Source of the DNA: Heptranchias perlo
Taxonomy: Eukaryota
NCBI RefSeq assembly: GCF_035084215.1
Contig: NC_090363.1
Location: 3,782,001-3,846,000, forward strand
Length of the DNA stretch: 64,000 nt
Reading direction: 5' to 3'
Shown: piece by piece, positions 13,412 to 58,044 of the stretch
Numbering within the stretch: the stretch's first letter is position 1
How the letters are laid out: every line of letters starts with the position of its first letter
Notes under the pieces: model-generated
Databases searched by the model: none
Told to the model about the DNA's origin: nothing
The model's input: the letters and a program-made list of their open reading frames with translations, nothing else
Translations under genes and position numbers: made by a program

Positions 13412-13543
13412 GATGTGGAGATGCCGGTGATGGACTGGGGTTGACAATTGTAAACAATTTTACAACACCAAGTTATAGTCCAACAATTTTATTTGAAATT
13501 CACAAGCTTTCGGAGGCATCCGCCTTCCTCAGGTGAATGTGGA
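13412..13543 (-). mobile_element. Penelope family B terminal mini-element with hammerhead motif (13499-13537)
   Basis: Matches about 57853-57980. Flanked by the direct repeat aatatttctt (13402-13411, 13544-13553). Reads UUCAC-CUGAGGA-A-GGCGG(AUG)CCUCC-GAAA-GCUU-GUGAA. Confidence 0.82.
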
Positions 13544-14542
13544 AATATTTCTTAACAGTTGTTCACACTAAGGAGTAGCTAACTGAATATTTGCATTCTC
13601 AGCAATAATAATCTTGGGAGTGCGGTCGCTAATTTATTGCCAATTTGCACAAATGTGGGTTGACATTGCCCCAAATTTATTTTAGGGTCCTTATGGTTAG
13701 CAGACATGCGGTGTCAGATTCTAATCCAGTCATCACCGTTGAAGGACAGTCTGGTTGAGTTTCCGCTGGTTATATCAGGGCAATTAGGGCAGAATCGACC
13801 AAACCAGCGCAAAAGATCGGGGAATTTTAACCGCCGGTGAGTTACGCCCAAAACCATTTACATTCATGTTTTTCATGATCTTTTAAGCTGGTTCAAGATT
13901 AAATTCACCCGGATCTGGCCCCACCCACAAAACCGGCCACGTTCCCAGATCAAAATTGCGAGATTTCGCCAATTGCGCTAGCTCGGGAAGGCTCTTCAAA
14001 TTGCGTCATTTTCTTAGGCGCACAGGCACTAGTTGGCATGTTTGAAAAGTTTTTTCATATCAAAATTTACTAAGAAACTGACTAGTGTACACCAATGAAA
14101 CTATTAAATGGTTCAGAGTAGTTATTTTAAAGTAATTTTCAGTGATTTTAAATCAGGTCACTCACAGGTGGAGGACTGGACACCCTTATTACAAATGCTT
14201 ATTTTTGGTGATAAACCCATTTTCAGCTGTATTAATAAAACTGCTCCAGGTTATCACTCTTAAATACATCAAGGAATACTTTTTAATGGAAAGGAAAAGA
14301 AACAGCCTGATTGCACTGGTTCATGGAAGATTTTACATTTGTGATTGTGCAAATTAATTTGCACAGAACCTTGAATTGTAACCTGACCAGCGCAATTTCA
14401 AGCACATTGTGGGCGCAATTTCCCGATGGTGCCCGAAGCAGAAACTCTATCCTAGTGTGCTTATCCACTGCTTCAGCCAGTTTCCCTTCTAATTCAAGAT
14501 ATTCAAAAAGCTCTGCATTTCCCCTCCTCCCATTTAACTCAC

Positions 14543-14805
14543 CTGGATTCCAGATCCAGGGCCTGGTGCAAACATCTTGGTGCCAATCATTTCGGACAGG
14601 TTTCTTGGCTGACTCCAGGTTCTTCCATCGTCCTGACTCTCGATCAGGAGTGTGCTGGAAACATTACAATGATAGTGGTGGGCACACATTGTGTACATGA
14701 TAAAAATGAGATCCTTTTCTTCATCGACCACTATGACCCCCAAGTTTAGGCCATCGACCTTTGAACCATCGTTGTCAAGGAAGGTGGTGGGGCTCCAGGT
14801 TTCAC
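14543..14805 (-). CDS. NEU1: Sialidase-1 exon 3
   Basis: (G)ETWSPTTFLDNDGSKVDGLNLG...SQDDGRTWSQPRNLS...FAPGPGSGIQ; 263 nt, CAG acceptor, GTGAGT donor. Confidence 0.94.
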
Positions 14806-17800
14806 CTGAAGAAAGGCAATTATGAAGCAAGTTGGGAAATATCAGTGTTGGGGAATGAAATACTCTTCCACTCTACGCATACTGTTCTTCTACTCCCAGG
14901 CCATGACATAAGATATATCTTAACCTCAGACTTGTAGCAGCACCTTCTACACCAAGGTGACATTTCCACTTCTCACGTTACTAACTGTTTGAGTGATCTG
15001 GTAATTTGTGCCATGGTGCGGGTGATTTGTGCGTAAGCCTGTACCCACCGAGGTCTCGAGAAGGTCACTTAGGACCCGATAACTAACAATTTTCATCGGT
15101 CAGTATCAGCTGAATTCAAATCCAGGTCCTTGAGCACCTTTACTTACTGTGCCACTCAAATTCTTAACAACAGTTAACTTTATTTTGCAATTGCCCAGTC
15201 ACTGGCTATAACTACATATGGTATCTAACATGCTGAACCAACCCAGTAGGATGGGTATGAAAACGCTCTAGTCTATCATGCATCAAAACACCACTGTACC
15301 AAGATGACTTTAAAACCAATTATGGTAATGATAGCTCATCAATTTCTCTTATATGCCACTTTATATTTACTTACAAACATGGGAGATTAGAATAGTTTGA
15401 GGGACTGCATCTGAATAGATGATTGAGATGTTGCCTGTCCAACTGGGCACTCAATGGCAAAGAGGCAAAGTCTCCATCTATGAACCACATCTGGAATGTA
15501 TCGCCTGAACAGGTGGTGGAAGCAGATTAAACAATAACTTTCAAAGGGGAATTGGATAAATACTTAGGGAAACATTGCAGGGCTATGGGGAAAGGGCAGG
15601 GGAATGGGACTAATTGGATAGATCTTTCAAACAGCCGGTACAGGCACAGTGGGCCGAATGGCCTCCTTCTGTGCTGTAACATTCTATGATTGCCCTGCAA
15701 GATCTTAAGTTCCATGGTATCTGATTTCAGCCAGGGCTGCTGCAATTGCTCCTAGCTCCCCTTAGTTAGAGAAGGAAAAATCAACAGAGACCCAAGGTGC
15801 ATGCTCTGTGCTACAAGTGATTATGGTTTAACAGTAAATTACACAGATGTAGCATTAGGTGAGCGCAGGCTACAAGTCAGCAGAACAACGGAGGGACTCC
15901 AATGGTTAATAAATCACAAAGTTTTAACAATTAGTAAAGGTGGGGGAGGAGGGAGGAGATTCCCTCTAAGTGTCATTTGTAACAAAATTGTAAACAAGTC
16001 TTCGATTTTGCTCTACAAAGCACAGCAGAGAAAATCTTACGTCACAATGATCTCAACATTGAGATTGGATTGCTGCCTGCAATTGTCTCATGAATAACCA
16101 GTGCCAGGAAAGGGGGCGGGTATCACTGGATAGCGATCGGTAGCAGCTACCTCTCCGTAGCCCAAGAGCGTTAAAGCCAATTGTAGCACCCTTACTGCCG
16201 TTCCAGCACAAACCAGGGGGACTGAACCTGGGATCGTCCTGGTCTGCTTGGCTCAGTTCCACACTGGGCCATTTACCAACTGAACCATTGGATGCACCTG
16301 CCATTTTACTTACCGATTCTTTATACCATACTGAATTAATTTGAGAAAAGCATCTGACTTTTTCAAAGACAATTGGTTAGCAGACAAGAGATTTGAACTT
16401 TGGTACAAACCAGACTACAGACATGGATGGTGATAACTGTAGAATTATGTTCTACACAGCAGAGAAACCAACACTGAACAAAGGCAGGAGGTACACTCTA
16501 TTGCATACAAGCAGTGAGGCACGTGTGCAATTGTTCTTTGCAGCTTATGTAGCTCCTTTGAGACACGTTTACCCCGTCTGCCCTCTCAGGTGGATGTAAA
16601 AGATCCTGTGGCACTATTCAGAAGAAGAGCCAGGGGGCTTTGCCCTGTGTCCTGGCCCATATTTATCCCTCAACTAACATCACTAAAAAGATTATCTGGT
16701 CATTTGTCTCATTGTTGTTTATGGGACCTTGCAGTGTGCAAATTGGCTGCCGTGATTCCTACATTACAACAGTAACTATGCTTCAAAAATACTTCAATGA
16801 CTGTAAAGTGCTTTGGGACGTTCTGAGGTCACAAAAGGCACTATATAAATGCAGGGTCTTTCTTTCATTTAGGGCACCAGAAATTGCCAAAATTATGTAT
16901 CAATGAAAATTGTTAGGAATCTTCAAATCTGAAACTAGAAGACACTAGTTATTAGTTTTGCCTCACGAGTTTAAAAAAAACAATTTGACATTTCCCACCA
17001 GAGCATTGTGTATCTACTGTACGTAACCCAGAAAGCACCAACCGATTGTGTGTTGACAAGAGGTGCATGTGAACCACATCCAAGACATCCTTACGTGTAC
17101 GCTGTGAATGTAGAAATTGTAACTTCATGAATATCTTGTCGGGGGAGGAGAAGAGGTTAATCTAGTCATTTTTAAGTTTACAACTGGAACCCTACAGTGC
17201 AGAGGGTTAAGTGAAAATGTCCTTTTATCTTTGAAGCGTATCAAAGCTCAACCTGCACTATTGTTTGCATGGTCTTCTACCTGCTGTTTAAGGTCCTTAC
17301 TAAGCAAATCCCCCACAAGGCAGGAGAGCTTACAAAATCCAGTATTTACAATAGGTCGACCCTTGCACAGTGCAGTAAATGTCCGATTTGCACCTTGCAC
17401 AGTTCATTCGACCATCTACCACCACTGCTTTGCAATGCTGCAAACAGGAGGGATATGTGACCAGTTTCGAGGTTCTTGTGTTCCACCCTTCAGGGTGCAA
17501 AGTGCCACAAGTTCTCCGTGTGATCAGCAACTTGCATTTAAAAAAAATCAGATTCTATGGAGAGACTGATCCAGAGTTTTATCCCCTCTTCTGTTTTCCC
17601 TGTGCATGTGACCAATGGTTTGACTGTAAGGTCAAACATCTTACGTTAAATATAACAAATACATCACAAGAGTTAATATTTGTCAAGCTCAAAATGATTG
17701 CGAAAAGTATACCAAAGGCAAGAGTATTTGTTTCACCTTGTGTTACTGTGGAATATCATTCTGAAAAATACAGGACTGGAAATTTCACTCAGTTTGTTTC

Positions 17801-18004
17801 GTCGATTACATTTCCTATTTTAAATACGATTATGTGCCGATTCTTTCCAGCATTTGAATAGTTCAACTGTCAGAACAAAACAAAATTGACCGCCTGACTG
17901 TCGGGCGTTATTAAAGAGATGGAGCACACTTCACTAGGGTTCCAGAAATCCAAGATTTAAGGAGCTCTTTCATTCCTTACTGAAACGTAATGTTAATCAA
18001 TCAC

Positions 18005-18194
18005 CTTTATCACTAGACGTGCGGACAGCGATGAACTTAGCACCAATATCCGCCGACGAATGCTTTCTTGCCTCCGCCACGGCAATGAGGTTATTGTGGG
18101 GGGTGATCGCGATGAGGGGGACCCTGAAGGTGTCGACATGGCCAACAACGCCACTTATCCACAGCAACTGTTCACTTTCGATGAGTGGCTTGAT
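18005..18194 (-). CDS. NEU1: Sialidase-1 exon 2
   Basis: [12 protein letters not shown]...VDTFRVPLI...[24 protein letters not shown](G): FRIP-type motif and first Asp-box; 190 nt. Confidence 0.95.
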
Positions 18195-18270
18195 CTGGAA
18201 CAAAAACAGGGTGGAATGTATTATACAACACGTCAACTTGCAGTCACCCACATGGCCTCCTTCACTGGAC

Positions 18271-18730
18271 AAAGCACAAGGGTTAAATTATGAGGACAGG
18301 TTGCATAGACTAGGCTGGTATTCCCTCGAGTTTAGAAGATTAAGGGGTGATCTGATTGAGGTGTTTAGGATGATTAAAGGAGTTGATAGGGTGGATAGAG
18401 AGAAACTATTTCCTTTGGTGGGGGAGTCCAGAAGATGGGGACATAACCTTAAAGTTAGAGCTAGGCTGTTCAGGGGTGATGTCAGGAAGCACTTCTTCAC
18501 ACAAAGGGGAGTGGGATTCTCGAACTCTCTTCCCCCAAAAAGCTGTTGAGGCTGGGGGTCAATTGAAAATGTCAAAACTGAGATTGATAGATTTTTGTTA
18601 GGCAAAGGAATCAAGTGATAAGGAACCAAGGCGGGTAAATGAAGTTGAGATAGAGATCAGCCGTGATCTAACTGAATGGCATAACAGGCTCGAGGGGTTG
18701 AATGGCCTACTCCTGTTCCTAATCTTGATA
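18271..18730 (+). mobile_element. CR1 LINE 3' fragment
   Basis: [29 protein letters not shown]...KHFFTQR plus the CR1 tail. Confidence 0.85.
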
Positions 18731-19432
18731 ATTTCTAAGGAGCAATATTTCACCGTGAAATCATTTCACAAGGTACAGTGGACAGATTTGGCCAAGGATT
18801 GTTAAACTTCATTTTGATTGTAACTCCGTTTTAATCTTACAACGGTGGCTGATGCAGTAAATTTTTCTTCACCATCTGATCCTTTGAGTATAATATTTAG
18901 GTGTACTCTACATTAGCCTAAGATTTTACAAAATGGCTGGAATAATTGAATTGCGGTGGTAATCTACAAAGAGTTGAAACCTCAGTAGGTGTATGCCGTG
19001 GGGCAGTAGAAATCCACGGAAGATGGCAAATGTGATATTGTCAACGAATTACTTGATCAATTGTTTTCTCGCCTTCGGAATTAAATATCATTTCAAATCA
19101 AGCCTTTTTCTTAAAGTCATGAGCAATTGAAATAGATGACGACATTTAAAAACTCACTTGAAATTGTCTCGATATTTAAAAAAAAAATCTAATTCGCTCC
19201 CCAATGGGTCAGCAAGTTTATTTAGCGAATAGCTAGGCAGGAAGGCCCCGTGGTTAATCCCTGGTCTGTACTCAGTGGAGGTGACATTATGGAGCTCATT
19301 GGCCTTCGCCCCCCTGGGTTAGAGAACGGACAATGGGTAAGATTTCCTGCTTGCTATACAGTATTCCCACTGGAAGTGTGGACATCAGGTAAGGATGGAT
19401 TGGGCTTGGCTGTGACATTCCCTCCCAACCAT

Positions 19433-19761
19433 GCGTTTGGTCACCTGTCCTAATGTCTCCTTCTTTGGTTCAGTGTCAGTTTTTTGTCTGATTAAGCTCC
19501 TGTGAAGCGCCTGAGGACATTTTAATATGTTAAAGGCGCTATATAAATGTAAGTTGATGTGTTGTTCAGTTGTGTACTTTCGCAGGGATCAATTTCCATT
19601 AAGGAACATCTAACCACCTTTCAGAGTACTATGGCAGTAGGCACATCTATCTAGTTTTCCATTCACCACATCCTAGCAGGAAATTAGCTAAATTCTGAGC
19701 ACTGAAGAATGTTAAAGGTGCACAGCTTCACTCTGTAGTACTAGTTCAAGGAAGATACCAT
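19433..19761 (+). repeat. Inverted duplicate (about 330 bp) of 21630-21957
   Basis: Reverse-complement match with few mismatches, covering an L2 tail plus about 200 bp of adjacent sequence. Confidence 0.9.
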
Positions 19762-26546: not shown

Positions 26547-27316
26547 GTGGTCTTACCGTTTAACCCGTATAGCGGCCACATCACGTTAGCACGAACGCTA
26601 TATGTGTTCAATCGTGGCTTTCAAAAGGGAATTGAATAAGTACTTGGAGAAAAAATTTGCAGGGCTTCAGGGAAAGGGCAGGAGAGTGGGACTAGCTGGA
26701 CTGATCTTGCAGAGAGCCGGTACGAGCTCGACGGGCCGAATGGCCTCGTTCTGTGCTATAACTATTCTATGATTCTATGCACTGGAGACTGTATACATAA
26801 TTCAGGTTTAAAATTTCAATGAAGTTTCCAGAGCAAGTCCAACCCGCAAGTAACCTAATTTGGTGATTGAATACTTTGCTGATTGGCGAGGGCACCCATT
26901 CTGCAACTATCTAAGTGGCTGCGCCCATCACAGTGGTGTCAACTCAGCAAATTCCATCTCCCCGTTGATTTTAATGGGGCTGGTGGAGCTATGATCATGA
27001 TCACTTTTCCCATGAGGATCTCTGTGGAGCAGCTCAAAAGGCCCATCAAAATTATGGCGTAGGGGAACACAATAGTGCAAGTCACTCACGCCGAATTTCC
27101 ACGCCGTAATAATGGTGTATGCCGTGGATACGTTATTACCACAGTGCAACTTTTCAGCAAATTAAAAATGGGAAGACTCCATGTTCAAGCCATCTGAGGT
27201 TTCGCAACCCCCCCGGGCACGTAAATGGGTAGGTGGGGAGGTCCCGGGTGTAAACAGGACCCTGGACCGAGGAGCCTGCATCTCACCGACCCCCTTCCTC
27301 TACCCTTCTCTTAGAG

Positions 27317-27415
27317 TTGTAAACAATTTTACAACACCAAGTTATAGTCCAACGATTTTATTTGAAATTTACAAGCTTTCGGAGGCTTCCTCCTTCCTCA
27401 GGTAAATCTCCACAT
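27317..27415 (-). mobile_element. Penelope family B mini-element with hammerhead motif (27367-27407)
   Basis: 13-bp TSD ccttctcttagag (27304-27316, 27416-27428). Reads AUUUAC-CUGAGGA-A-GGAGG(AAG)CCUCC-GAAA-GCUU-GUAAAU. Confidence 0.85.
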
Positions 27416-27461
27416 CCTTCTCTTAGAGGGAGGTGCAGACCGAGGGGAACCCAGGGCACAG

Positions 27462-27995: not shown

Positions 27996-27999
27996 AATG

Positions 28000-38522: not shown

Positions 38523-39073
38523 TCAGTGACCTTTAACCCCGAAGATTGTCAGCGGTGCTGAGTTTTTACCGTCATTATTCCATCCCGGACTGAAGATCGG
38601 AAAGAGTCTCTCGGTGAAAGTGTGGGTGAAAGTGTGGAGATGGGACATGTTGTCCGCATTGTAAAATGACACCTGTCCGCCCTCATAGTCCAGGTACACC
38701 CCGATCTTCCGGGGATCCACACTCGGGGTGAGGGGGGTCCGTGAGGGGGAGGTGGCGGCAAAATAGCGTCTTCCAGGTAACAGCCGTACAACCCAGTATC
38801 CGGACTGAGGATTCAGGCCGATTCCCCCTTTCCTCTCGGCAGACTCTCGGGCCACTCCCACACGCCACCAAGTCTTGTCCCCCACCTCCACCTCCCAGTA
38901 ATGTCTCCTTGATGTGAATCCCTCCGATCCCAGGACACAGGGCCAGAGATCAAACCTCTCCGGGGTGTCAGGGAGCCGCTGCTGTTTGTCTCCGAGTCTC
39001 ACACTGGTCCGGTCCTCAGACACGATGAGCCCGGGATGGTTTGTCTTCGGATCCAGAGTCAGAGAGGCTGGAG
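38523..39073 (-). CDS. TRIM copy 1 exon 6, PRY-SPRY (B30.2) domain
   Basis: (A)[24 protein letters not shown]...[27 protein letters not shown]...[17 protein letters not shown]...LFPIFSP; CAG acceptor at 39074-39076, stop at 38523. Confidence 0.95.
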
Positions 39074-39899
39074 CTGGGGGAGAGTGAAAATAACAGTCAG
39101 TGATTCAGTTTCTTGCTGTGATTTATTCAAACACTTTCCTGTTTAAAGTGCCCACTCGGGGGATTCCTGGGACCTCCGGTGTGTTTAAAGGGCTCCAGGT
39201 TCTGTTATTGGAATCTGCTCCCACCCGGGGGTTTACGCTCCTGGAACCGCTCTGACCTCAGGTGGACACTTCGATCATGACCCGCTGCAAGGAACCCCGT
39301 GGTCACCCAGTCCCCTGCGGCTCTCAGCCCCTGCACAGTGACCCAGGGGCCTTTAGAGATTCACAAGGAACCGGCGCCAAGAGGCTCCGACGTGGTTTGG
39401 AGGCACAATCTCGGCCTGAAGGCGTCACCCCTGATACCCCCACATCACCAATCAACGGGATCGCTGAGGGGAGAGGGGGAAGATACAGATACCAAGGGGA
39501 AAGAAAGAAGGGAAGGAAAAGAGTAAAAGAACAAAAGAGGGCAACTGCTGCAGAAAGGGAGAACGGAAAGAAACTAAACTCATCAGAGGGAATGGGAACA
39601 AGAACAGAACCCGCAGAGGGAGGGAGGAAAAGGGCCAATAATAAATAATTCAAGGGGGAAAAGTAGAAAAAGTAAGAGGGACAAAGAAGCTGCGGCCCAC
39701 AACTCGATCTGCCCAGGAACGCAAGCAAAACTGGAACAACCCCGCGTTCCCCACATCAGCATTCCTCACACTCGCCCCACGTATGGACAACACAGTAACC
39801 ATGAGTGGAGACCCGAACTGTGATCTTCACTCCCAACGGGTCAAGCTCCAAGCGGATACAGGGCATGAGGACAAGCAGTCGGAGTAATTTGGGGGCAAA

Positions 39900-42980: not shown

Positions 42981-43033
42981 TAAACATAAAAATGAGTTAT
43001 AAATCAGGACAAAGGAACCTGTATGAATTTTAC

Positions 43034-43244: not shown

Positions 43245-43267
43245 CTCCTCTTCCCACAAGTTTCCTC
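43245..43267 (-). CDS. TRIM copy 1 exon 4 (23-nt micro-exon)
   Basis: tttcag|GAGGAAACTTGTGGGAAGAGGAG|gtag; a 23-nt exon is typical of B30.2 TRIM genes and restores the frame. Confidence 0.85.
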
Positions 43268-44019
43268 CTGAAATAAATAAAACACAAATCTGAGCTGACA
43301 GAGACTGACTATATCCTGACAGCAGAAATTACACCCAATTTGTTAGAAGTTGCTGATAATTCTAAATTCTCACTGCTGCCGACACTGGGAAAGAAAGAGG
43401 GTATTATAAAAAAGGATATAGAAGCACTGGAGAATGTCACAAGAATTCCACCAGAACTGAGAGGGTAAAACAATCAGGAAAGACTGAACAAGAAGATTGA
43501 GAGGTGACCTGATAGAGGTCTTTAAAATTATGAAGGTGTTCGATAGGGTAGATGTAAAAAACATGTTTCCACTTGTGGGGGATTCCAATGCCAGGCGCCA
43601 TAAGAAAAAGATAGTCACTAATAAATCCACTAAGGAATTCAGCAGAAACTTCTTTACCCAGAGAATGGTGAGAATGTGGAACTCGCTAACACAAGGAGTG
43701 GTTGAGGCAAATAGCACCTATGCATTTAAGGGGAAGCTTGATAAGTACATGAGGGAGAAAGGAATGGAATGTTATGCTGATAGGGTGAGATGAAGTAGGG
43801 TGGAGGAGACTCGTGTGGATCATAAACACCGGCATAGACCAGTTGGGCTGAATGGCCTGTTTATGTACTGTAAAATTCTATGTAGGATATATTTGAAAAA
43901 CAGACAGCAGAACTTACACCAAAATTATTAAATCCATCTGATAGAAACAGGGATACAGTTGAAAATCTGATTTGTGGAACAGGTACTGGAAATCAACATC
44001 AGTCCCATTCAGACACAGT

Positions 44020-45470
44020 GGGCGCTAAATTGGGCCGTGTAGTGCCCGTTGTTATGGCGCAACGTGGCCCCACGAACAACCAAGATGGCATCTTGGCTGC
44101 GCACGCCCATTTCCAGCGTGACGTGCGCGAGACACCATCCTGGTATAGGCGTTGGAGCATGCACAAATACTGAACACCAGAAGCATGTAAAGTAAGGAGA
44201 AAATGGTTGCAATCAGTGTGCAACGCTGATTTAAAGCAATAGACACCATTTTGGCACTTAACGCTCAACTCAACGCAGAGTCTTAACCACGATCATCTGA
44301 ACGTGTCTGAGAGTACCTGGAGGACCCCCCCTATGGCTATTTAAAGGGACCATGCAGGATTTACAGTTAGTGGCTGGATTATTGCTTCTGGCTGCCAATA
44401 CATTTGTAACTGTTTTTGGAGGTCTCCTAGACTTCAATACTAGAACGTGGGGACATAGCCTAACATTTAGAGCCAGGACGTGCAGGAGTGAAGTCAGGAA
44501 ACGCTTCTACGCGCAAAGGGTGGGAGAAGTTTGGAACGCTATTCTGCCAACGGCAGTTGATGCGAGCTCAGTTGTGAATTCTAAATCTGAGATTGATAGA
44601 TTTCTGTGAACCAAGGGTAATGAGGGATATGGAGTTAGGTCACAGGTCCACCATTGAATGGCAGAACAGGCTCGAGGGGCTAAATGTCACTGCCACTTGC
44701 TGCCTCCTGTTATGTGCCACCTGCTTCTGCAAGAAAGCGGGACGTGTGTCTGGGTGATGTGCCTGCCATGGTTGAATAGCTGGCAGTGTGTGTGGCCTGT
44801 GAGTTGTGGGAGGGCGGCTTGCACCAGTGGTAATGTGTAAGGGTGAGAGGAAGTATCTGATTGGAAAAATTGAGTACTGATGGAAAGAGCTTGTCAGTAT
44901 GTGGGTGATGGGGGTGTAGTGCATGGAGCAGTGGGTGCAGCTAGTGGTGCAGTTGGTAGGAGACGCTGCTTGACAGTTGACCTCAATCACCTTGACCACT
45001 CGTGTCAAAGCATTGAACTTCTTCCTGCACTGCATCCATGTTCATGATGCTGTGTGCCTGGAATTGACTTCATCCCCTACTGCATCCCACTGCCTTTTGG
45101 GCATATGTCTGGAGGGCCTCTTGCACCCCCCCGCCCCCCCCAACCCTGTGGAGATAGGATGTCCCTCCTTCTGTCCACCTCTTGGACCAAGGTCTCTTGT
45201 GCATCATCAGAGAACCTTGGTGCATGCACTCTCGCAGGCCTGGTACCAACTCAGATCAGGAGATTGGTGAGGTCTGGTGTGCAGATTGGAGGATGTGGGA
45301 TTTAGTAGTGTGCAACCTTTCTTCAATGTTTTAACATAACTCATCAGTGTGTAAACATAGGGACAGGTCCTGCTTCTGTGTTTTATATTTGCGATTTCTG
45401 AACACTGTTCAGACTCCGTGCAGACTGCAGACTTTTATTTTTAGCAAATAGATACCGGCTACCTTTAAGA
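44020..45470 (-). mobile_element. Harbinger-like remnant with Myb/SANT-like fragment in TRIM intron 3 (mirror at about 58995-60443)
   Basis: APRFSDDALEALVQEVNRRRDIL...WEAVGDEVNS..MQCRKKFNAL in the mirror copy; similar to the ORF at 23249. Confidence 0.55.
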
Positions 45471-46055
45471 GATTTTAGGAGACATCCTCCCTTTAAGAGA
45501 TTGGGACTTACCCTGCTGGTGGAAAATGCAAGTTGCATTGAATCCTCCTGTCAAGGCTGATTTCCAAAGCTGCTTGAAGGTGAGTACTGAGGCCGGATGA
45601 AAGTCTTGTCCTGCCTGTGCAGGGGCCATTGGGTGCAGGTTAATAGCGGATCGCGCTGCCCATGCCTGAAAATAGACCTTATCCAATTTTTTTCCCCAGT
45701 GACTCTCACACCCACCATCCCAGACACACCCACACACTCACATCATGTGACTGGAACTGTGAATTCCAGGAAAATATTAAACTTGGGGAACACAGAAATA
45801 ATTACAAGCTAAGTGTGAAGATCAGGGCAACTCATTCCCGGGGGGGTTGTAGGTATTCCCGGGATTCTGTAGATATTGTGGGAGGCCGATTAGTTCGGTG
45901 ACAATAGCAGATCCAGCGCAGAATACACAAAACAATCGATCGGTTCAAATCAGTTTCGAATTATTTGGGAAATGTTACATTTATTTCAAAATTCTCGCCC
46001 ATCATTTTGTGACTGTGTGGACTTTCACTGAACTAAACTGAAATATAATCCTCAC

Positions 46056-46289
46056 CTTCAGAAATATCAGTCCGTCTTTTTGCTCCATCTGTTTTTGCAA
46101 CTTTGAGAGCTTCTCCTGAATTGAATTTAAATTCTCTTGAATTTCTCGCAGATTTTTCTTCATTGTTTCTAGAATCTTCCCCTCTTGTTTCCTGAGATCT
46201 CTGATTAAACGCTGCTCTTTCTCAGTGAGAATCTGGTGCATTTTAGCAAACTCGGATGTGATGCGGGTCTGCAGACAGTTCGACTGTTT
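46056..46289 (-). CDS. TRIM copy 1 exon 3 (coiled coil, 234 nt)
   Basis: KQSNCLQTRITSEFAKMHQILTEKEQRLI...DGLIFLK; TAG acceptor, GTGAG donor. Confidence 0.92.
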
Positions 46290-46374
46290 CTACAAAATGA
46301 AATGTGAAAAATAATAATGTATAAAGGGACAAAACTAACCGAAATCCAAGAAAATCAGCACTGGGAGACCTTAC

Positions 46375-46470
46375 CCTAACTTCGGAAATCTTCTGTTTTT
46401 GTTTCTGTTCCGTTTCGAGAACCGCCGTTTTCTTCCCTGTGAGAGAATCTAAGGAAGATTTCAGCTGATC
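46375..46470 (-). CDS. TRIM copy 1 exon 2 (96 nt)
   Basis: [32 protein letters not shown]; CAG acceptor, GTAAG donor. Confidence 0.92.
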
Positions 46471-46559
46471 CTGGGATTGGGATAGAAAATCACAGAATAA
46501 AGTGTTAGACCATGAAAATGTGATAAAATAATCAGCTGATCAAATCTGTTCCATTTTAC

Positions 46560-46967
46560 CTTGTACATTTCAACAGCTTCTTTAATCGGCATGAAGTTGT
46601 GAGATTTGTGTTCCCGCGAATCTCTACAAATAAGACAGATCAATTTCTTGTCAGTTTCACAAAACAGCTTCAGTTCTTCCTGATGTTCCTCACAGTGAAG
46701 TTTATTTTCCTTCTCTTTCCGATTCAGGTTTAATTTTCGAGCTTTCTCGGCCAGACTCGCTAAGGCCCGATTAACCCTGAGGTTTCTTTCCGGAAACTCC
46801 TCTCTACATTCCGGGCAGGAGTTTATCTCCTTTCCCCAACACTGTGTGATACAGGAGCGGCAGAAGTTGTGCCCACACTCCAGTATAACCGGATCGGTGA
46901 AGAAATCAAGACAAATGGGGCAAATTGCCTCCTCGGTCCAACTCTCAGCCTGCTGCCTGGAAGCCAT
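46560..46967 (-). CDS. TRIM copy 1 exon 1 (RING + B-box2), TRIM39/TRIM27(RFP)-like E3 ligase
   Basis: [45 protein letters not shown] (C3HC4) and [29 protein letters not shown] (B-box). The six exons join to an open 475-aa frame. Confidence 0.95.
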
Positions 46968-48129
46968 GTTCAGTCTCAGCACTTCCTCATTCAAACCCCT
47001 TTCATTTTCGATGTTACTGAGCTGCCGAACACCTTCAGACCAGCGATTTCCTGATGAAGTTCACTGCAATACTCAGGAAATTCTTATAAACTAATCCATG
47101 TCCCATCGACTTTTACACAGGGAGACAAAATCTAGAACAGTATAAAGGACAAACAGTGTTAGAGGACGGAGGGGGAGATAATTGAAAGAGGCAGGGAGGG
47201 GCAGGGTACATGGAAGGTGGGCAGTGGGAGGAGGCAGAGAGGGGGAGAGTAATTGGAGAGAGGGAGGGAGGAGGCGGAGATGGGCGGGGATCGAGATTCC
47301 ATTGCACTTCGCCCCGGACTGAATTCACTGCCGTCTGTAAACCCTCTGGTGAAACACGGTGTAAGATATAGATCAATAAACTGAATTGAGTTAATGATTG
47401 TAGCCGCTCACACTAAAACACAAAGTTCCATAAATGGTAAGGAGCTGTCTGGAAGTTATGATCAGTTTCAGTACTTCCTGATTCAAACTGCTGGTGTCTT
47501 GTTTCTGTGGGTGGATTGAGACCCGGTTCCCAGTCAGAGATCTCTCTCTCTCTCTCTCTCGTCCCTGGAAGTGCTGTTCACATCAGGATGAAATAATATC
47601 GCATTTACAAAGTGACGTTTCGGGCTGCTCCCATCATCAGACTGAGAGACAAACGGGCATTTTACTCAGGCTGGGAAAACTGAGAGGGAAAAGGAGGAGG
47701 GGAGAGGAGAGGTCAATGCCGATTTGACAGAAATCGTTCTATTCCATAAATTTTGTGTGATGAGCTATCATGTTCCAATCCTGTCTTCGTATCCAATATC
47801 AGGTAGATTTTTTCTTTGAAATCAACAGAAAGAAGAACTTGCATCTATGAAGTGCTTTTGATGACCTCAGGATGTCCCAAAGCTCTTTACAGCCAATTAA
47901 GTACTTTTAAAAAAAGTGTAATCACTGTTGTAATGTAGGAAATGCAGCAACCAATTTGCGCACAGCAAGATCCCACAAACAGCAATGAGATAATGACCAG
48001 ATCATCTGTTTTTTTTAGTGAATGTTGGTTGAGGGATAAATATTGGGCCAGGACACCTTGAGATCGTGCCTTGGGATTTTTTACATCCACCTGAGAGAGG
48101 CACTTAAACCCACAACCTTCTTCCTCAGA

Positions 48130-48237
48130 TGTGGAGATTCCACATCGTTCACCTGAGGAAGGAGGTAGCCTCCGAAAGCTTGTGAATTTAAAATAAAATT
48201 GCTGGACTATAACTTGGTGTTGTAAAATTGTTTACAA
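48130..48237 (+). mobile_element. Penelope family B mini-element with hammerhead motif (48148-48186), left arm only
   Basis: TSD ttcttcctcaga (48118-48129, 48238-48249); empty site in the right arm near 54512-54523. Reads UUCAC-CUGAGGA-A-GGAGG(UAG)CCUCC-GAAA-GCUU-GUGAA. Confidence 0.88.
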
Positions 48238-49396
48238 TTCTTCCTCAGAGGCGTGGAGTGCTCCGACTGAGCTAAGGGTGACACCTTGGCGGAATCAGTG
48301 TGCAGAACTTTCAACTTAAGCAGGAATGTAAAACTGGCATTATCGGGTCATCTGCCCATTATACACCCCGCCAGATTCTCCCTCCCGTTGAAGTTGAAAG
48401 TTCCGCCTGTTGATTTCAATGGCAATGAAAATCGCCCAGTTTTGTGCCCAGACAGTAAGTTGAATTTCAAGCCCCCCAGTTTCTGGTGGGACATTCTGTG
48501 TTCTAACAACCCTCTATGCAAAACAAAGTTCTGCTCGCCTCTCCCTCCTTCAGGATTAAGGTAGGAGTGGGTGCAAAGGGGAATGAAAGAAATGGAACAA
48601 GAGCAGATTCAAAGGTGGTGCAATGAGTTCCGTGCCTGATTTCATTCGTTTTTTTGATGGTGTTTTCTCAGGGTAATAGCTTGCACTCGCAGAAAACTCT
48701 AAGGAGTGAAGGACGTGTAAAAATAATTCCGTTTCTGATTAATGCGGTTGGGTCAGGGACCAGCAAACTTGGAGTGAACGACCAGGAGGAGCAAATCAGA
48801 GGTTTGATTCCTGTACTTCTGCTTTCTGGTCACACGATGGCGCTGCTGCTCTGGGTTTGTGAAGTTTCACCATTTACATCGTCCAATGCCACCCTCTGCT
48901 GGAGACATGCCGCCACTACAGAATCAGCGTGGGTTTTTCCCCATTCTCCGGAACAAGGGGCTTTTAACCACCTGGATTGCCCTTGCATAGAGCCAGCATG
49001 GACTCGATGGGCCGAATGGCCTCCTTCAGTGCTGTAACCTTTCTGTTTTTAAATACAGTCACAGGATGTGTACAGCCAGAGTCCACAAGCACTGGGGTTT
49101 TGACACCAACATTGCCCAACTCTGTAAATTTCTATCAGATTTGTTTGTTGTGGATTTAATTTTGTGCCTGACTGAGACTTTACATTCTGCCCACTTTCAC
49201 GACTCGTGTTAATAGTGCGGTGCAGACGGCGGGGTGTGTTATCACAGACACCTAGGGGGTAGAAACAGGCGGAATCGCATCAGCCGCCTGTTCTACGCCT
49301 CGCCCGTTTCGATTGAAGTCACTGGAAGGGAAAAAATGGCGTAAATGGATGGATAATTCAATATCGCCCATTTTACACCATCGCCCAAAGATTAAA

Positions 49397-52300
49397 CGAG
49401 CACCCGACGGACCTGAATATCACACGGGGTGTATAACGGGCGAGCACCCGACGGACCTGAATATCACACGGGGTGTATAACGGGCGAGCACTCGACGGAC
49501 CTGAATATCACACGGGGTGTATAACGGGCGAGCACTCGACGGACCTGAATATCACACGGGGTGTATAACGGGCGAGCACCCGACGGACCTGAATATCACA
49601 CGGGGTGTATAACGGGCGAGCACTCGACGGACCTGAATATCACACGGGGTGTATAACGGGCGAGCACCCGACGGACCTGAATATCGCACGGGGTGTATAA
49701 CGGGCGAGCACTCGACGGACCTGAATATCGCACGGGGTGTATAACGGGCGAGCACCCGACGGACCTGAATATCACACGGGGTGTATAACGGGCGAGCACC
49801 CGATGGACCTGAATATCGCACGGGGTGTATAACGGGCGAGCACCCGACGGACCTGAATATCACACGGGGTGTATAACGGGCGAGCACCCGACGGACCTGA
49901 ATATCACACGGGGTGTATAACGGGCGAGCACTCGACGGACCTGAATATCGCACGGGGTGTATAACGGGCGAGCACCCGACGGACCTGAATATCGCACGGG
50001 GTGTATAACGGGCGAGCACCCGACGGACCTGAATATCGCACGGGGTGTATAACGGGCGAGCACCCGACGGACCTGAATATCGCACGGGGTGTATAACGGG
50101 CGAGCACCCGACGGACCTGAATATCGCACGGGGTGTATAACGGGCGAGCACCCGACGGACCTGAATATCACACGGGGTGTATAACGGGCGAGCACCCGAC
50201 GGACCTGAATATCGCACGGGGTGTATAACGGGCGAGCACCCGACGGACCTGAATATCACACGGGGTGTATAACGGGCGAGCACCCGACAGACCTGAATAT
50301 CGCACGGGGTGTATAACGGGCGAGCACCCGACGGACCTGAATATCACACGGGGTGTATAACGGGCGAGCACCCGACGGACCTGAATATCGCACGGGGTGT
50401 ATAACGGGCGAGCACCCGACGGACCTGAATATCACACGGGGTGTATAACGGGCGAGCACCCGACGGACCTGAATATCACACGGGGTGTATAACGGGCGAG
50501 CACCCGACGGACCTGAATATCGCACGGGGTGTATAACGGGCGAGCACCCGACGGACCTGAATATCACACGGGGTGTATAACGGGCGAGCACCCGACGGAC
50601 CTGAATATCGCACGGGGTGTATAACGGGCGAGCACCCGACGGACCTGAATATCGCACGGGGTGTATAACGGGCGAGCACCCGACGGACCTGAATATCGCA
50701 CGGGGTGTATAACGGGCGAGCACCCGACGGACCTGAATATCACACGGGGTGTATAACGGGCGAGCACCCGACGGACCTGAATATCACACGGGGTGTATAA
50801 CGGGCGAGCACCCGACGGACCTGAATATCACACGGGGTGTATAACGGGCGAGCACTCGACGGACCTGAATATCGCACGGGGTGTATAACGGGCGAGCACC
50901 CGACGGACCTGAATATCACACGGGGTGTATAACGGGCGAGCACCCGACGGACCTGAATATCACACGGGGTGTATAACGGGCGAGCACCCGACGGACCTGA
51001 ATATCACACGGGGTGTATAACGGGCGAGCACCCGACGGACCTGAATATCACACGGGGTGTATAACGGGCGAGCACCCGACGGACCTGAATATCGCACGGG
51101 GTGTATAACGGGCGAGCACCCGACGGACCTGAATATCGCACGGGGTGTATAACGGGCGAGCACCCGACGGACCTGAATATCACACGGGGTGTATAACGGG
51201 CGAGCACCCGACGGACCTGAATATCACACGGGGTGTATAACGGGCGAACACCCGACGGACCTGAATATCGCACGGGGTGTATAACGGGCGAGCACCCGAC
51301 GGACCTGAATATCACACGGGGTGTATAACGGGCGAGCACCCGACGGACCTGAATATCACACGGGGTGTATAACGGGCGAGCACCCGACGGACCTGAATAT
51401 CACACGGGGTGTATAACGGGCGAGCACCCGACGGACCTGAATATCACACGGGGTGTATAACGGGCGAGCACCCGACGGACCTGAATATCACACGGGGTGT
51501 ATAACGGGCGAGCACTCGACGGACCTGAATATCGCACGGGGTGTATAACGGGCGAGCACCCGACGGACCTGAATATCACACGGGGTGTATAACGGGCGAG
51601 CACCCGACGGGCCTGAATATCACACGGGGTGTATAACGGGCGAGCACCCGACGGACCTGAATATCACACGGGGTGTATAACGGGCGAGCACCCGACGGAC
51701 CTGAATATCACACGGGGTGTATAACGGGCGAGCACCCGACGGACCTGAATATCGCACGGGGTGTATAACGGGCGAGCACCCGACGGACCTGAATATCGCA
51801 CGGGGTGTATAACGGGCGAGCACCCGACGGACCTGAATATCGCACGGGGTGTATAACGGGCGAGCACCCGACGGACCTGAATATCACACGGGGTGTATAA
51901 CGGGCGAACACCCGACGGACCTGAATATCGCACGGGGTGTATAACGGGCGAGCACCCGACGGACCTGAATATCACACGGGGTGTATAACGGGCGAGCACC
52001 CGACGGACCTGAATATCACACGGGGTGTATAACGGGCGAGCACCCGACGGACCTGAATATCACACGGGGTGTATAACGGGCGAGCACCCGACGGACCTGA
52101 ATATCACACGGGGTGTATAACGGGCGAGCACCCGACGGACCTGAATATCACACGGGGTGTATAACGGGCGAGCACCCGACGGACCTGAATATCGCACGGG
52201 GTGTATAACGGGCGAGCACCCGACGGACCTGAATATCGCACGGGGTGTATAACGGGCGAGCACCCGACGGACCTGAATATCACACGGGGTGTATAACGGG

Positions 52301-52655
52301 CGAGCACCCGACGGACCTGAATATCACACGGGGTGTATAACGGGCGAGCACCCGACGGACCTGAATATCACACGGGGTGTATAACGGGCGAGCACCCGAC
52401 GGACCTGAATATCGCACGGGGTGTATAATGGGCGAGCACCCGACGGACCTGAATATCACACGGGGTGTATAACGGGCGAGCACCCGACGGACCTGAATAT
52501 CGCACGGGGTGTATAACGGGCGAGCACCCGACGGACCTGAATATCACACGGGGTGTATAACGGGCGAGCACCCGACGGACCTGAATATCACACGGGGTGT
52601 ATAACGGGCGAGCACCCGACGGACCTGAATATCACACGGGGTGTATAACGGGCGA
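49397..52655. repeat. 44-bp tandem satellite, about 74 units
   Basis: Unit cgggcgagcacccgacggacctgaatatc(a/g)cacggggtgtataa, nearly invariant, with no spacers. Confidence 0.98.
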
Positions 52656-52797
52656 ACGATGCGATGACTAATTGATATTTGGAAACCATAATCGGTGCTC
52701 CAGGATCAGATTTGCTTTCGCGTGGGGTGCGAGTGAGGCACAGCCTGGATCATCAGCCCAAGCAGTCGGGGTCTGCCTCTGCTGTACCTGTATTACT

Positions 52798-53113
52798 TAT
52801 AAGAATATAAGAAATAGGAGCAGGAGTCGGCCATCCGGCCCCTCGAGCCTGCTCCATCATTCAATCAAATCACGGCTGATCTTCTACCTCAAAGCCATTT
52901 TCCTGCACTATCCCCATATCCCTTGATGCCTTTAATATCTAGAAATCCATTGATCTCTGTTTTGAATGCACTCAATGACTGAGCATCCACAGCCCTCTGG
53001 GGTGGAGAATTCCAAAGATTCACCACCCTCTGAGTGAAGAAATTTCTCCTCATCTCAGTCCTAAATGGCCGACCCCTTAGTCTGAGACTGTGACCCCTGG
53101 TTCTCGACTCCCC
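52798..53113 (-). mobile_element. CR1 LINE 3' fragment
   Basis: Reverse complement of the CR1 tail family seen at about 2600-2908. Confidence 0.8.
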
Positions 53114-55653
53114 TAGATTTAATTAATCACCGCATCCTGGACGCGCCTGGCTCTCGTTCTCCCTCCTGTCACAGGCTGGACCAGTTCCCAATGAAGATTC
53201 AACCATGCTGGTCGCTGCCAGTGATAGCATTCTGCAATATATAAGGTCACAGATTAATGGTAAAGTGATTAGTGACATCCCCTTATTTTTGTTAAACTGA
53301 GACTATCTCTACCTCCCTTTTTGCTCTTTAATGCTTCATTGCTCATCCTACTTCCCAATTCAATTCTCCTCACCATATCCCAGCTGGGGTCACTATATTC
53401 TTTTGGTTTGCACCCGAGAAGCATCACTCGGTATAAGTCTGTATCTTATATTTTGGGGAATCTGCCATAATACTTTATCGCCAAATATCAAGATCGGCGA
53501 GATTCAGTCCTTTCATCCCGATCGAAACAAGGCCTCAATTAGAAACATAGAAAGGTTACAGCACTGAAGGAGGCCATTCGGCCCATCGAGTCCATGCCAG
53601 CTCTGTGCAAGGGCAATCCAGCTGGTCCCACACCCCCGCCCTATCCCTGTCGCCCTGCAATTTTTTTCCTTTCAAGTACTTATCCAGTTCCCTTTTGAAA
53701 GCCATGATTGAATCTGCCTCCACCTGCATTCCAGATCCTAACCGCTTGCCAACATCCCTTCTCTCCTCTTCCCCTGCAGATGGCAAAGGTGGTTAAAAGC
53801 CCCTTGTTCCGGAGAATGGGGAAAAACCCACGCTGATTCTGTAGTGGCGGCATGTCTCCAGCAGAGGGTGGCATTGGACGATGTAAATGGTGAAACTTCA
53901 CAAACCCAGAGCAGCAGCGCCATCGTGTGACCAGAAAGCAGAAGTACAGGAATCAAACCTCTGATTTGCTCCTCCTGGTCGTTCACTCCAAGTTTGCTGG
54001 TCCCTGACCCAACCGCATTAATCAGAAACGGAATAATTTTTACACGTCCTTCACTCCTTAGAGTTTTCTGCGAGTGCAAGCTATTACCCTGAGAAAACAC
54101 CATCAAAAAAACGAATGAAATCAGGCACGGAACTCATTGCACCACCTTTGAATCTGCTCTTGTTCCATTTCTTTCATTCCCCTTTGCACCCACTCCTACC
54201 TTAATCCTGAAGGAGGGAGAGGCGAGCAGAACTTTGTTTTGCATAGAGGGTTGTTAGAACACAGAATGTCCCACCAGAAACTGGGGGGCTTGAAATTCAA
54301 CTTACTGTCTGGGCACAAAACTGGGCGATTTTCATTGCCATTGAAATCAACAGGCGGAACTTTCAACTTCAACGGGAGGGAGAATCTGGCGGGGTGTATA
54401 ATGGGCAGATGACCCGATAATGCCAGTTTTACATTCCTGCTTAAGTTGAAAGTTCTGCACACTGATTCCGCCAAGGTGTCACCCTTAGCTCAGTCGGAGC
54501 ACTCCACGCCTCTGAGGAAGAAGGTTGTGGGTTTAAGTGCCTCTCTCAGGTGGATGTAAAAAATCCCAAGGCACGATCTCAAAGAACAGCAGGGCAGTTC
54601 ACCCCGGTGTCCTGGCCCAATATTTATCCCTCAACCAACATTCACTAAAAAAAACAGATGATCTGGTCATTATCTCATTGCTGTTTGTGGGATCTTGCTG
54701 TGCGCAAATTGGTTGCTGCATTTCCTACATTACAACAGTGACTACACTTTTTTTAAAAGTACTTAATTGGCTGTAAAGAGCTTTGGGACATCCTGAGGTC
54801 ATCAAAGGCACTTCATAGATGCAAGTTCTTCTTTCTATTGATTTCAAAGAAAAAATCTACCTGATGTTGGATACGAAGACTGGATTGGAACATGATAGCT
54901 CATCACACAAAAATTATGGAATAGAACGATTTCTGTCAAATCGGCATTGACCTCTCCTCTCCCCTCCTCCTTTTCCCTCTCAGTTTTCCCAGCCTGAGTA
55001 AAATGCCCGTTTGTCTCTCAGTCTGATGATGGGAGCAGCCCGAAACGTCACTTTGTAAATGCGATATTATTTCATCCTGATGTGAACAGCACTTCCAGGG
55101 ACGAGAGAGAGAGAGAGAGAGATCTCTGACTGGGAACCGGGTCTCAATCCACCCACAGAAACAAGACACCAGCAGTTTGAATCAGGAAGTACTGAAACTG
55201 ATCATAACTTCCAGACAGCTCCTTACCATTTATGGAACTTTGTGTTTTAGTGTGAGCGGCTACAATCATTAACTCAATTCAGTTTATTGATCTATATCTT
55301 ACACCGTGTTTCACCAGAGGGTTTACAGACGGCAGTGAATTCAGTCCGGGGCGAAGTGCAATGGAATCTCGATCCCCGCCCATCTCCGCCTCCTCCCTCC
55401 CTCTCTCCAATTACTCTCCCCCTCTCTGCCTCCTCCCACTGCCCACCTTCCATGTACCCTGCCCCTCCCCGCCTCTTTCAATTATCTCCCCCTCCGTCCT
55501 CTAACACTGTTTGTCCTTTATACTGTTCTAGATTTTGTCTCCCTGTGTAAAAGTCGATGGGACATGGATTAGTTTATAAGAATTTCCTGAGTATTGCAGT
55601 GAACTTCATCAGGAAATCGCTGATCTGAAGGTGTTCGGCAGCTCAGTAACATC

Positions 55654-55682
55654 GAAACTGAAAGGGGTTTGAATGAGGAAGT
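55654..55682 (+). promoter_or_regulatory. IRF/ISRE-like GAAACTGAAAG plus ETS-like GAGGAAGT just upstream of the TRIM ATG
   Basis: GAAANNGAAA match at 55654-55663 (GAAAATGAAA in copy 1 at 47000-47009). Motif match only. Confidence 0.35.
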
Positions 55683-55695
55683 GCTGAGACTGAAC

Positions 55696-56106
55696 ATGGC
55701 TTCCAGGCAGCAGGCTGAGAGTTGGACCGAGGAGGCAATTTGCCCCATTTGTCTTGATTTCTTCACCGATCCGGTTATACTGGAGTGTGGACACAACTTC
55801 TGCCGCTCCTGTATCACACAGTGTTGGGGAAAGAAGGAGATAAACTCCTGCCCGGAATGTAGAGAGGAGTTTCCGGAAAGAAACCTTAGGGTTAATCGGG
55901 CCTTAGCGAGTCTGGCCGAGAAAGCTCGAAAATTAAACCTGAATCGGAAAGAGAAGGAAAGTAAACTTCACTGTGAGGAACATCAGGAAGAACTGAAGCT
56001 GTTTTGTGAAACTGACAAGAAATTGATCTGTTCCATTTGTAGAGATTCGCGGGAACACAAATCTCACAACTTCATGCCGATTAAAGAAGCTGTTGAAATG
56101 TACAAG
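55696..56106 (+). CDS. TRIM copy 2 exon 1 (RING + B-box2)
   Basis: Same protein as copy 1 with one extra Lys; GTAAA donor at 56107. Confidence 0.94.
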
Positions 56107-56192
56107 GTAAAATGGAACAGATTTGATCACCTGATTATTTTATTGTAAACAATTTTACAACACCAAGTTATAGTCCAGCAATTTTATTTTAA

Positions 56193-56233
56193 ATTCACAA
56201 GCTTTCGGAGACTTCCTCCTTCCTCAGGTAAAT
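56193..56233 (-). ncRNA. Hammerhead ribozyme motif (inverted arm)
   Basis: AUUUAC-CUGAGGA-A-GGAGG(AAG)UCUCC-GAAA-GCUU-GUGAAU. Confidence 0.78.
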
Positions 56234-57852
56234 GTTCAGGAGCTCCTCGAAGCCTACGCATTTATACATATAGAACAATACATGGTGTTTACAGAATGCC
56301 CCTGCAACTGCCCGTTGCCAAGGCAATCACCGTGTTCAGACAGAGAGGTGTCACCTGCAGAACCCCCGAATACACATTCAACAAAAAAACAAACAGGGAA
56401 AAAAAACAGAGAGAGGCAGAAACATCCGGAAGGCATAGAAAGCCAGCAAATGACCCATTATATTAAAAACAGATAACATTTGTTCGCTGGTGGGGTAACG
56501 TGTAGCGTGACATGAACCCAAGATCCCGGTTGAGGCCGTCCTCATGGGTGCGGAACTTGGCTATCAATTTCTGCTCGACGATTTTGCGTTGTCGTGTGTC
56601 TCGAAGGCCGCCTTGGAGTACGCTTACCCGAAGGTCGGTGGATGAATGTCCATGACTGCTGAAGTGTTCCCCGACTGGGAGGGAACCCTCCTGTTTGGCG
56701 ATTGTTGCGCGGTGTCCGTTCATCCGTTGTCGCAGCGTCTGCATGGTCAAAGAGGCCATCCCCTATGGACAGGCCCTGCGAATACACAGGGTCTGCTCAG
56801 ACGAGGAGGAACGCGATGGACACCTACAGACGCTGAAAGACGCCCTAGTAAGAACGGGATATGACGCTCGACTCATCGATCGACAGTTCCGACGGGCCAC
56901 AGCAAAAAATCGCATAGACCTCCTCAGGAGACTAACACAGGATGCAACCAACAGAGTACCCTTTGTCGTCCAGTACTTCCCCGGAGCGGAGAAACTATGC
57001 CATGTTCTCCGCAGCCTTCAACATGTCATCAATGAGGACAAACACCTCGCTATGGCCATCCCCACACCTCCACTACTCGCCTTTAAACAGCCACCCAACC
57101 TCAAACAGACCATCGTTCGCAGCAAATTACCTAGCTTTCAAGAGAACAGCGTCCACGACACCACACAACCCTGCCACGGTAACCTCTGCAAGACATGCCA
57201 GATCATCGACACAGATACCACCATCACACGAGAGGACACCACCCACCAGGTGCATGGTTCATACTCCTGTGACTCGGCCAACGTTGTCTACCTCATACGT
57301 TGCAGGAAAGGATGCCCCAGAGCATGGTACATTGGCGAGACCATGCAGACGCTGCGACAACGGATGAACGGACACCGCGCAACAATCGCCAAACAGGAGG
57401 GTTCCCTCCCAGTCGGGGAACACTTCAGCAGTCATGGACATTCATCCACCGACCTTCGGGTAAGCGTACTCCAAGGCGGCCTTCGAGACACACGACAACG
57501 CAAAATCGTCGAGCAGAAATTGATAGCCAAGTTCCGCACCCATGAGGACGGCCTCAACCGGGATCTTGGGTTCATGTCACGCTACACGTTACCCCACCAG
57601 CGAACAAATGTTATCTGTTTTTAATATAATGGGTCATTTGCTGGCTTTCTATGCCTTCCGGATGTTTCTGCCTCTCTCTGTTTTTTTTCCTGTTTGTTTT
57701 TTTGTTGAATGTGTATTCGGGGGTTCTGCAGGTGACACCTCTCTGTCTGAACACGGTGATTGCCTTGGCAACGGGCAGTTGCAGGGGCATTCTGTAAACA
57801 CCATGTATTGTTCTATATGTATAAATGCGTAGGCTTCGAGGAGCTCCTGAAC

Positions 57853-57893
57853 ATTTACCTGAGGAAGGAGGAAGTCTCCGAAAGCTTGTGAAT
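57853..57893 (+). ncRNA. Hammerhead ribozyme motif (Penelope 3' terminus)
   Basis: AUUUAC-CUGAGGA-A-GGAGG(AAG)UCUCC-GAAA-GCUU-GUGAAU. Confidence 0.78.
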
Positions 57894-58044
57894 TTAAAAT
57901 AAAATTGCTGGACTATAACTTGGTGTTGTAAAATTGTTTACAATTGTCAACCCCAGTCCATCACCGGCATCTCCACATCATGATTATTTTATCACATTTT
58001 CATGGTCTAACACTTTATTCTGTGATTTTCTATCCCAATCCCAG

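Follow-up and report, generated by a model that had tools for sequence, protein, structure and literature searches.

A minimal hammerhead motif in the pseudo-LTR of a young, Neptune-like Penelope element of the shark Heptranchias perlo

Hammerhead motifs and insertions in the window

The window (the whole 64,000-nucleotide stretch of Heptranchias perlo DNA analysed here) contains five copies of a short hammerhead motif, with the core residue C3 at positions 13532 (-), 27401 (-), 48153 (+), 56227 (-) and 57859 (+). All five had been reported in a sequence-only reading, which gave the low ends of the motifs as coordinates; however, the motifs at 56193 and 57853 are identical: they form the two arms of a single insertion, which has an inverted 5' copy and is flanked by one 12-bp TSD. 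Only four insertions are therefore present. From 5' to 3', each motif comprises stem I (6 bp), CUGAGGA, one additional A, stem II (5 bp, closed by a loop of 3 nt), GAAA, GC, UU and the 3' strand of stem I. The insertions and their parts are as follows (pLTR, pseudo-LTR).

13412..13543, minus strand: short solo copy comprising the predicted start region, the hammerhead, the end of the pLTR and a tail of 37 nt; 10-bp TSD at 13402-13411 and 13544-13553
13498..13538, minus strand: minimal type I hammerhead with 6-bp stem I and a rare C.U in stem II pair 3; predicted cut 13504/13503
27317..27415, minus strand: short solo copy that lacks the tail but has a few tail bases, inverted, at the 5' end; 13-bp TSD at 27304-27316 and 27416-27428
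27367..27407, minus strand: hammerhead belonging to the subfamily with U-A at stem I pair 3, which has 3,070 genome-wide matches; predicted cut 27373/27372
48130..48237, plus strand: short solo copy of subfamily B, flanked by a 12-bp TSD (48118-48129 and 48238-48249); the empty site is the paralogous arm near 54511-54522
48147..48187, plus strand: hammerhead with loop II UAG; predicted cut 48181/48182
56144..57980, plus strand: 5'-truncated Penelope-like insertion with inverted 5' arm; 12-bp TSD at 56132-56143 and 57981-57992; the paralogous site near 46523-46534 is empty
56193..56233, minus strand: hammerhead of the inverted arm, identical to 57853-57893
56746..57624, plus strand: remaining 3' part of the ORF, covering the RT thumb region, the CX4CX2C linker and the GIY-YIG endonuclease; identity to intact copies elsewhere 99%
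57625..57943, plus strand: 3' UTR / pseudo-LTR of the Penelope-like insertion, subfamily A
57820..57827, plus strand: TATA-like box, conserved across subfamilies; inferred transcription start near 57849-57850
57853..57893, plus strand: hammerhead with a U.G wobble in stem I and a G.U pair closing stem II; predicted cut 57887/57888
57944..57980, plus strand: optional tail between the two preferred 3' ends, finishing at the first base of the element's ATG

The arms of the insertion at 56144-57980 (56142-56748 and 57339-57944) are 99.8% identical over 607 nt. For this insertion and for that at 48130-48237, the empty site is displayed by the paralogous arm of a local inverted duplication. The stem I states UUCAC/GUGAA, UUUAC/GUAAA and UUUAC/GUGAA described in the sequence-only reading are borne out in the window, with the pairing extended to 6 bp, as are the stem II loops AUG, AAG and UAG and the invariant core of the five copies. 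Since the arms at 56193 and 57853 share one insertion, the window holds three stem I states in four events. The motifs sit inside a repeat of 91-133 nt that is 92-97% alike among copies; the invariance of the core in these five copies is thus mostly a matter of common descent.

Stem II is closed by a G.U pair in copies 56227 and 57859, and is not intact in copy 13532, where pair 3 is a C.U mismatch. Because of this mismatch, copy 13532 was missed by a strict descriptor, which returned five sites in the window (four of the five copies and one motif of another family) as against a mean of 0.04 and a maximum of 1 in 100 dinucleotide-matched resamples. The covariance-model search proposed as a check on the motif came back empty, with no hammerhead match at E<=1 in an Rfam scan of the window. 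Single-copy folding z-scores are weak (-0.66 to -2.05) and not diagnostic.

Hammerhead-like motifs of other families, with a CUGAUGA core and CG or CA before UC/UU, lie at 55023(+), 47640(-), 3409(-) and 33145(-); those at 55023 and 47640 are one duplicated site, and only the motif at 3409 passes the strict descriptor. A large inverted duplication (43701-48973 and 53787-60762, 96-100% identical) carries paired TRIM-type RING/B-box exons (46461-47060, minus strand, and 55624-56148, plus strand), and in one of its copies the insertion 56144-57980 is located about 36 nt after a splice-donor-like site. The arms of the duplication are separated by a 44-bp tandem array (49397-52655, 74 copies, 98% matches). 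The window also includes a LINE at 61056-63868 (+), with APE endonuclease and RT in separate frames, and a PRY-SPRY exon at 38523-39104 (-), probably of a TRIM gene.

The parent element and its subfamilies

The proposed Penelope origin is confirmed by the presence of the motif in both pLTRs of intact RT/GIY-YIG elements: the hammerheads of the window are the pLTR hammerhead of a young, very abundant, 3.08-kb Neptune-like Penelope element, encoding a 902-aa RT with a C-terminal GIY-YIG domain. When the ORF remnant of 56144-57980 was searched against the genome, open frames of 918 aa with 99% identity were listed at many places. The unit measures about 3.08 kb in the 20 loci retrieved and is often tandem or accompanied by an inverted truncated copy; the 3.08-kb tandem units have a hammerhead about 120 nt upstream of the ATG and a second one after the stop, and the loci contain 16 intact 902-codon ORFs. 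The RT (RVT_1, E=2e-10) and the C-terminal endonuclease are combined in a single ORF, the GIY-YIG match being weak (score 19.2, where the Pfam cut-off is 22.6; for the complete protein no such match was reported). A CX4CX2C linker, which fits the CX2-5CxxC of Neptune and is also found in a turtle homologue, precedes the endonuclease. The nearest named homologues are shark proteins (93-94%, 86% and 80%), followed by turtle proteins at about 44-46%. The traits of endonuclease-bearing Penelope-like elements (EN+ PLEs) are present, namely pLTRs from tandems, an inverted 5' copy, an optional tail of the 30-40-bp class and a TSD.

Comparisons with published systems, here and below, refer to excerpts of the cited papers. 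The shark element shares with Neptune (Craig 2021, PMC8557442) the order of RT, linker zinc-finger motif and C-terminal GIY-YIG, as well as the partial tandems, the inverted 5'-truncated copy, the 30-40-bp tail and the pLTR hammerhead; Poseidon, in contrast, is without the CX2-5CxxC linker. The arrangement of RT, linker and C-terminal endonuclease is given in PMC8557442 for both Neptune and Nematis, and the Neptune-like placement suggested here rests on the linker motif, which Nematis shares.

The hammerhead itself belongs to a class known since 2014, to which the shark family adds a further member and two modest leads on mechanism. Minimal hammerheads (min-HHRs) in the pLTRs of metazoan PLEs, including Xena, Poseidon and Neptune of fish, were described by Cervera and De la Pena (2014, PMC4209133). 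The shark copies share with these the type I topology, the short stem I, the extra base between A9 and G10.1, the G10.1-C11.1 pair and the palindromic 15.2-16.2, together with the pLTR location, the prevalence of solo or inverted copies and the covarying subfamilies. They differ in stem II, which has 5 bp compared to 7-8 in Schistosoma, and in copy number, which is at least 80,325 exact matches as against about 9,000 in Xenopus and about 4,000 in the coelacanth. No shark family is named in the excerpts of PMC4209133, and the papers listed in literature searches include none on this shark family.

The exact matches in the 3.25-Gb genome comprise 43,818 motifs with G7 and 36,507 with C7, counts in which inverted pairs appear twice and gapped or mutated copies are missed; the reversed-pattern control gave 0 matches genome-wide, compared with 43,818. 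Two subfamilies, A and B, have ORFs that differ at about 28 of 2,706 nt (~1%), with the diagnostic sites mostly in the first 1,425 nt, whereas in the first ten copies per class their identity is 75% in the UTR, 57% in the stretch from the TATA box to the core and 91% in the hammerhead. The hammerhead is thus conserved against a strongly divergent background. Such near-identical ORFs with divergent UTRs (loci L091-L107 and L031-L060) point either to promoter/UTR swapping by recombination or to a very fast turnover of the UTR. Other subfamilies include the U-A (stem I pair 3) group already listed, one of 2,523 matches in which stem II pair 3 is G-C and, in 19/19 motifs read, stem I pair 4 is C-G, and a CCGC/GUGG group, in which stem I is only 4 bp long. 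An older sister family, with 19,808 exact matches (e.g. L241-L270), is distinguished by a variant tail and has the same hammerhead core with C7; its ORF end is about 95% identical.

Conservation of the core and covariation of the stems

Conservation was assessed in 360 tail-anchored copies, of which 291 are ungapped with at most three core mismatches and 261, at 158 places, have an intact 5' side. The core CUGANGA...GAAA...UH is satisfied by all five window copies and at the 158 places. Across these places, C3, U4, G5, A6, G8, A9, A13, A14, A15.1, U16.1 and U17 each vary in at most one place per alternative base, and no catalytic base has an amplified variant, while N7 (C in 38), loop II and the stems differ by subfamily. 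G12A occurs at 7 places and C11.1U at 8, on unrelated backgrounds, as would be given by CpG decay after insertion.

Four stem pairs switch between Watson-Crick states in the 158 places and in targeted listings, mostly with the G-U state amplified as well. At stem I pair 3 the states are C-G at 99 places, U.G at 47, U-A at 22 (enriched by the targeted search) and C.A at 3, and an A at the 3' position of this pair has U opposite in 94 of the first 100 copies listed out of 3,070. Stem II pair 5 occurs as G-C, G.U and A-U in the 158 places, with C-G in 6 of 100 listed copies and a G.G mismatch in 7 of 100. Two amplified mismatches lie at outer pairs, C.U at stem I pair 5 and A.C at stem II pair 5, each at 14 places. 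The amplified stem states are paired in 8/10 cases and the rare ones in 12/40 (Fisher p=0.009, with the CpG wobble moved to 'rare'), and for the inner pairs only the figures are 5/5 and 12/27 (p=0.046); these p-values are only indicative, because each amplified state may be one event, and the counts ignore phylogeny and mix states with places in the 2x2 tests.

Compensatory change had been claimed from the window itself. It is found genome-wide, but the five window copies alone display one compensatory path in one pair. The cross-species evidence for covariation consists of the differences listed for contigs of runs labelled as other organisms, in which the alignment starts at the hammerhead and continues, with the listed indels only in stem-loop II. 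All of these runs are contigs of guessed type, and none recorded as RNA was found. The region immediately 3' of the hammerhead is also highly conserved, so the invariance of the core may in part reflect linkage. Overall, the absence of amplified variants at the catalytic bases and the covariation of the stem pairs support, genome-wide, the earlier suggestion that selection acts on both the structure and the catalytic core of the motif.

Predicted cleavage, ends of the copies and the template for insertion

The anatomy of the motif is consistent with the proposed pairing of palindromic stems III in a dimer. A15.1 and U16.1 are separated by only 2 nt, so a monomer cannot close stem III, and in cofolding the palindromes pair between two molecules. 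The cofold favours a 6-bp palindrome duplex (-4.3 kcal/mol) over the active 4-bp one (-2.5 kcal/mol), and in the 6-bp duplex A14 is predicted to pair with the scissile U17, an over-pairing from which low basal activity is predicted. Self-cleavage after CUU is itself a prediction; the genomic copies bear no sign of a cut at this site, and no usable data on CUU/U17 cleavage rates were found in the literature. Low dimer activity was reported for the min-HHRs of PMC4209133, in line with the low activity predicted here, as are the protein-assisted cleavage in PMC11167929 and the inactivity of eight of nine retrozyme dimers in bioRxiv 2026.07.22.740005.

The ends of the copies bear on how they were made. 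The 3' ends are grouped around two positions separated by about 37 nt, of which the second is at the ATG. In 66 long copies a TATA-like box is conserved 37-47 nt before C3, with a diversity of 0.008 as against 0.31 just downstream. Transcription typically starts about 30 nt after a TATA box. Short copies are found at 67 of 134 places, and 31 of these 67 end at TATA+28..33; the mode of the 5' ends lies 10-11 nt before C3 for A (9 vs 4) and 15-17 nt before it for B (1 vs 11; p=0.004). Because this modal end shifts with the TATA box between A and B, the main 5' end follows the box and not the stem, suggesting that transcription starts about 30 nt downstream of the pLTR TATA box, 10-17 nt before the core. 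Fourteen of the 67 short places end 0-6 nt from C3, inside stem I, and several copies extend far upstream of TATA+30. A promoter in the pLTR is shared with other PLEs, and a TATA box plus an Inr-like site has been proposed for Pen2a of Adineta (PMC3846280); the internal promoter of D. virilis Penelope is TATA-less (Schostak 2008, PMC2377424), unlike the shark pLTR. The use of short-copy ends to map the start is not a feature of the excerpted promoter work (PMC2377424, PMC3846280).

Since the cDNAs of short copies that end near TATA+30 extend across the cut site, they were made from uncut RNA. A clean start at the predicted cut is seen in 76+52 = 128 copies, compared with 60,846 tail matches, under a filter in which both preceding U are replaced and which passes perhaps half of the true cases; RNA that is linear and cleaved would therefore have served only rarely, if at all, as the template. 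A control three-letter filter placed 3 nt downstream gave 299 cases, including some indel variants, as against 76 at the cut. The idea that copies begin at the cleavage site was rejected, as there is no excess over this control. Fold-backs account for 13 of 30 C-class cut-start cases read; in these the other arm holds a whole hammerhead and the junction is explained by the self-complementarity of stem I.

We consider it probable that the motif is a minimal hammerhead in the pLTR of a young Neptune-like PLE, kept under selection and predicted to be slow, cutting after CUU only as a dimer or with the help of a protein, and that most insertions derive from uncut RNA. A transcript initiated some 30 nt after the TATA box, just before the hammerhead core, would be reverse transcribed from either of two sites flanking the 37-nt tail. 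From the upstream pLTR, reverse transcription would proceed across the uncut hammerhead as far as the 5' end of the RNA, yielding the 90-135-nt solo copies, to which three of the four insertions here would correspond; from the downstream pLTR it would yield longer, 5'-truncated copies such as 56144-57980. The two pLTR hammerheads of one tandem transcript could supply the partners of a dimer via the AGCU palindrome. Similar behaviour is described for the Poseidon element PAc of Anolis (Frangieh 2024, PMC11167929), in which uncut RNA is the dominant substrate, the ribozyme is protein-assisted and the tail signature is tied to two internal RT start sites; PAc shares with the shark element the two start sites flanking the tail, the dominant uncut template and, in the excerpts, the lack of cut-site reads. 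In PAc, however, the hammerhead and tail overlap the ORF start, whereas both are upstream of the ATG in the shark element.

Purifying selection on the catalytic bases, taken together with the absence of insertions from cleaved templates, narrows the models to gated cleavage or religated circles. In the model of Cervera and De la Pena (2014), the hammerheads efficiently cut tandem transcripts to unit-length RNAs, which are religated into circles, and from these circles the long and the tandem insertions are copied. Tandems of the 3.08-kb unit in which every junction carries a hammerhead do exist, the catalytic core is strictly kept, and the low cut-start counts are compatible with such a route, because reverse transcription across a religated junction leaves no cut-start copy. 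Nevertheless we regard it as unlikely, in that the short copies stopping near TATA+30 require a linear, uncut 5' end, metazoan min-HHRs showed low activity in vitro (PMC4209133) and eight of nine Xenopus retrozyme dimers failed to cleave (bioRxiv 2026.07.22.740005). More doubtful still is that the motif is kept as a non-cleaving fold, binding protein or pausing RT in the 5' leader, with short copies ending where RT stalls. The genome without a trace of cleavage, the predicted A14-U17 over-pairing, the 14 of 67 short places that end inside stem I and the unimpaired in vitro insertion of the Anolis element with hammerhead mutants (PMC11167929) would all agree with it, but the invariant bases are exactly the catalytic ones, with N7 free, and the main 5' end tracks the TATA box and not the stem.

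Building on selection and an uncut template, a bolder and tentative reading is that the copies, in their tens of thousands, form a fossil 5'-end map of the Penelope life cycle, with a TATA-driven start before the hammerhead and an uncut template; the selected, gated ribozyme would cut the 5' leader off its own mRNA once the A14-U17 over-pairing is relieved by the element's protein, and near-identical ORFs would swap or rapidly renew the promoter and UTR around a frozen core. The function of hammerheads in endonuclease-bearing PLEs is called unclear in PMC8557442, and if this reading is true their role becomes testable in an intact vertebrate element. The shark family provides young, intact elements, naturally occurring stem variants and a very large number of copies.

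That the short copies are an independently replicating non-autonomous family, of retrozyme or SINE-like type, and not dead-end products of the full element, appears highly improbable. Many of them share a sharp 5' end and carry their own TSDs; against this, in 5' flank and hammerhead they agree with the pLTR subfamilies of the long copies, their junctions vary from copy to copy and the TATA box is absent from them. They share with non-LTR retrozymes (bioRxiv 10.64898/2026.07.22.740005) the character of PLE-derived, short, non-coding units with a type I hammerhead, but retrozymes are defined by tandem arrays of the short unit, and no such arrays were seen among the loci read, where the short shark copies occur singly or head-to-head and have the look of dead-end products. 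That the short copies are a circularly permuted mini-unit running from tail to head was also considered and rejected, as the bases at their 5' end correspond to the pLTR of subfamily B. Among the short insertions, many are hairpins in which two hammerhead arms meet head-to-head close to the predicted 5' end of the RNA (L002-L028, L181, L210); if transcribed, these would give double-stranded RNA in which the ribozyme is masked.
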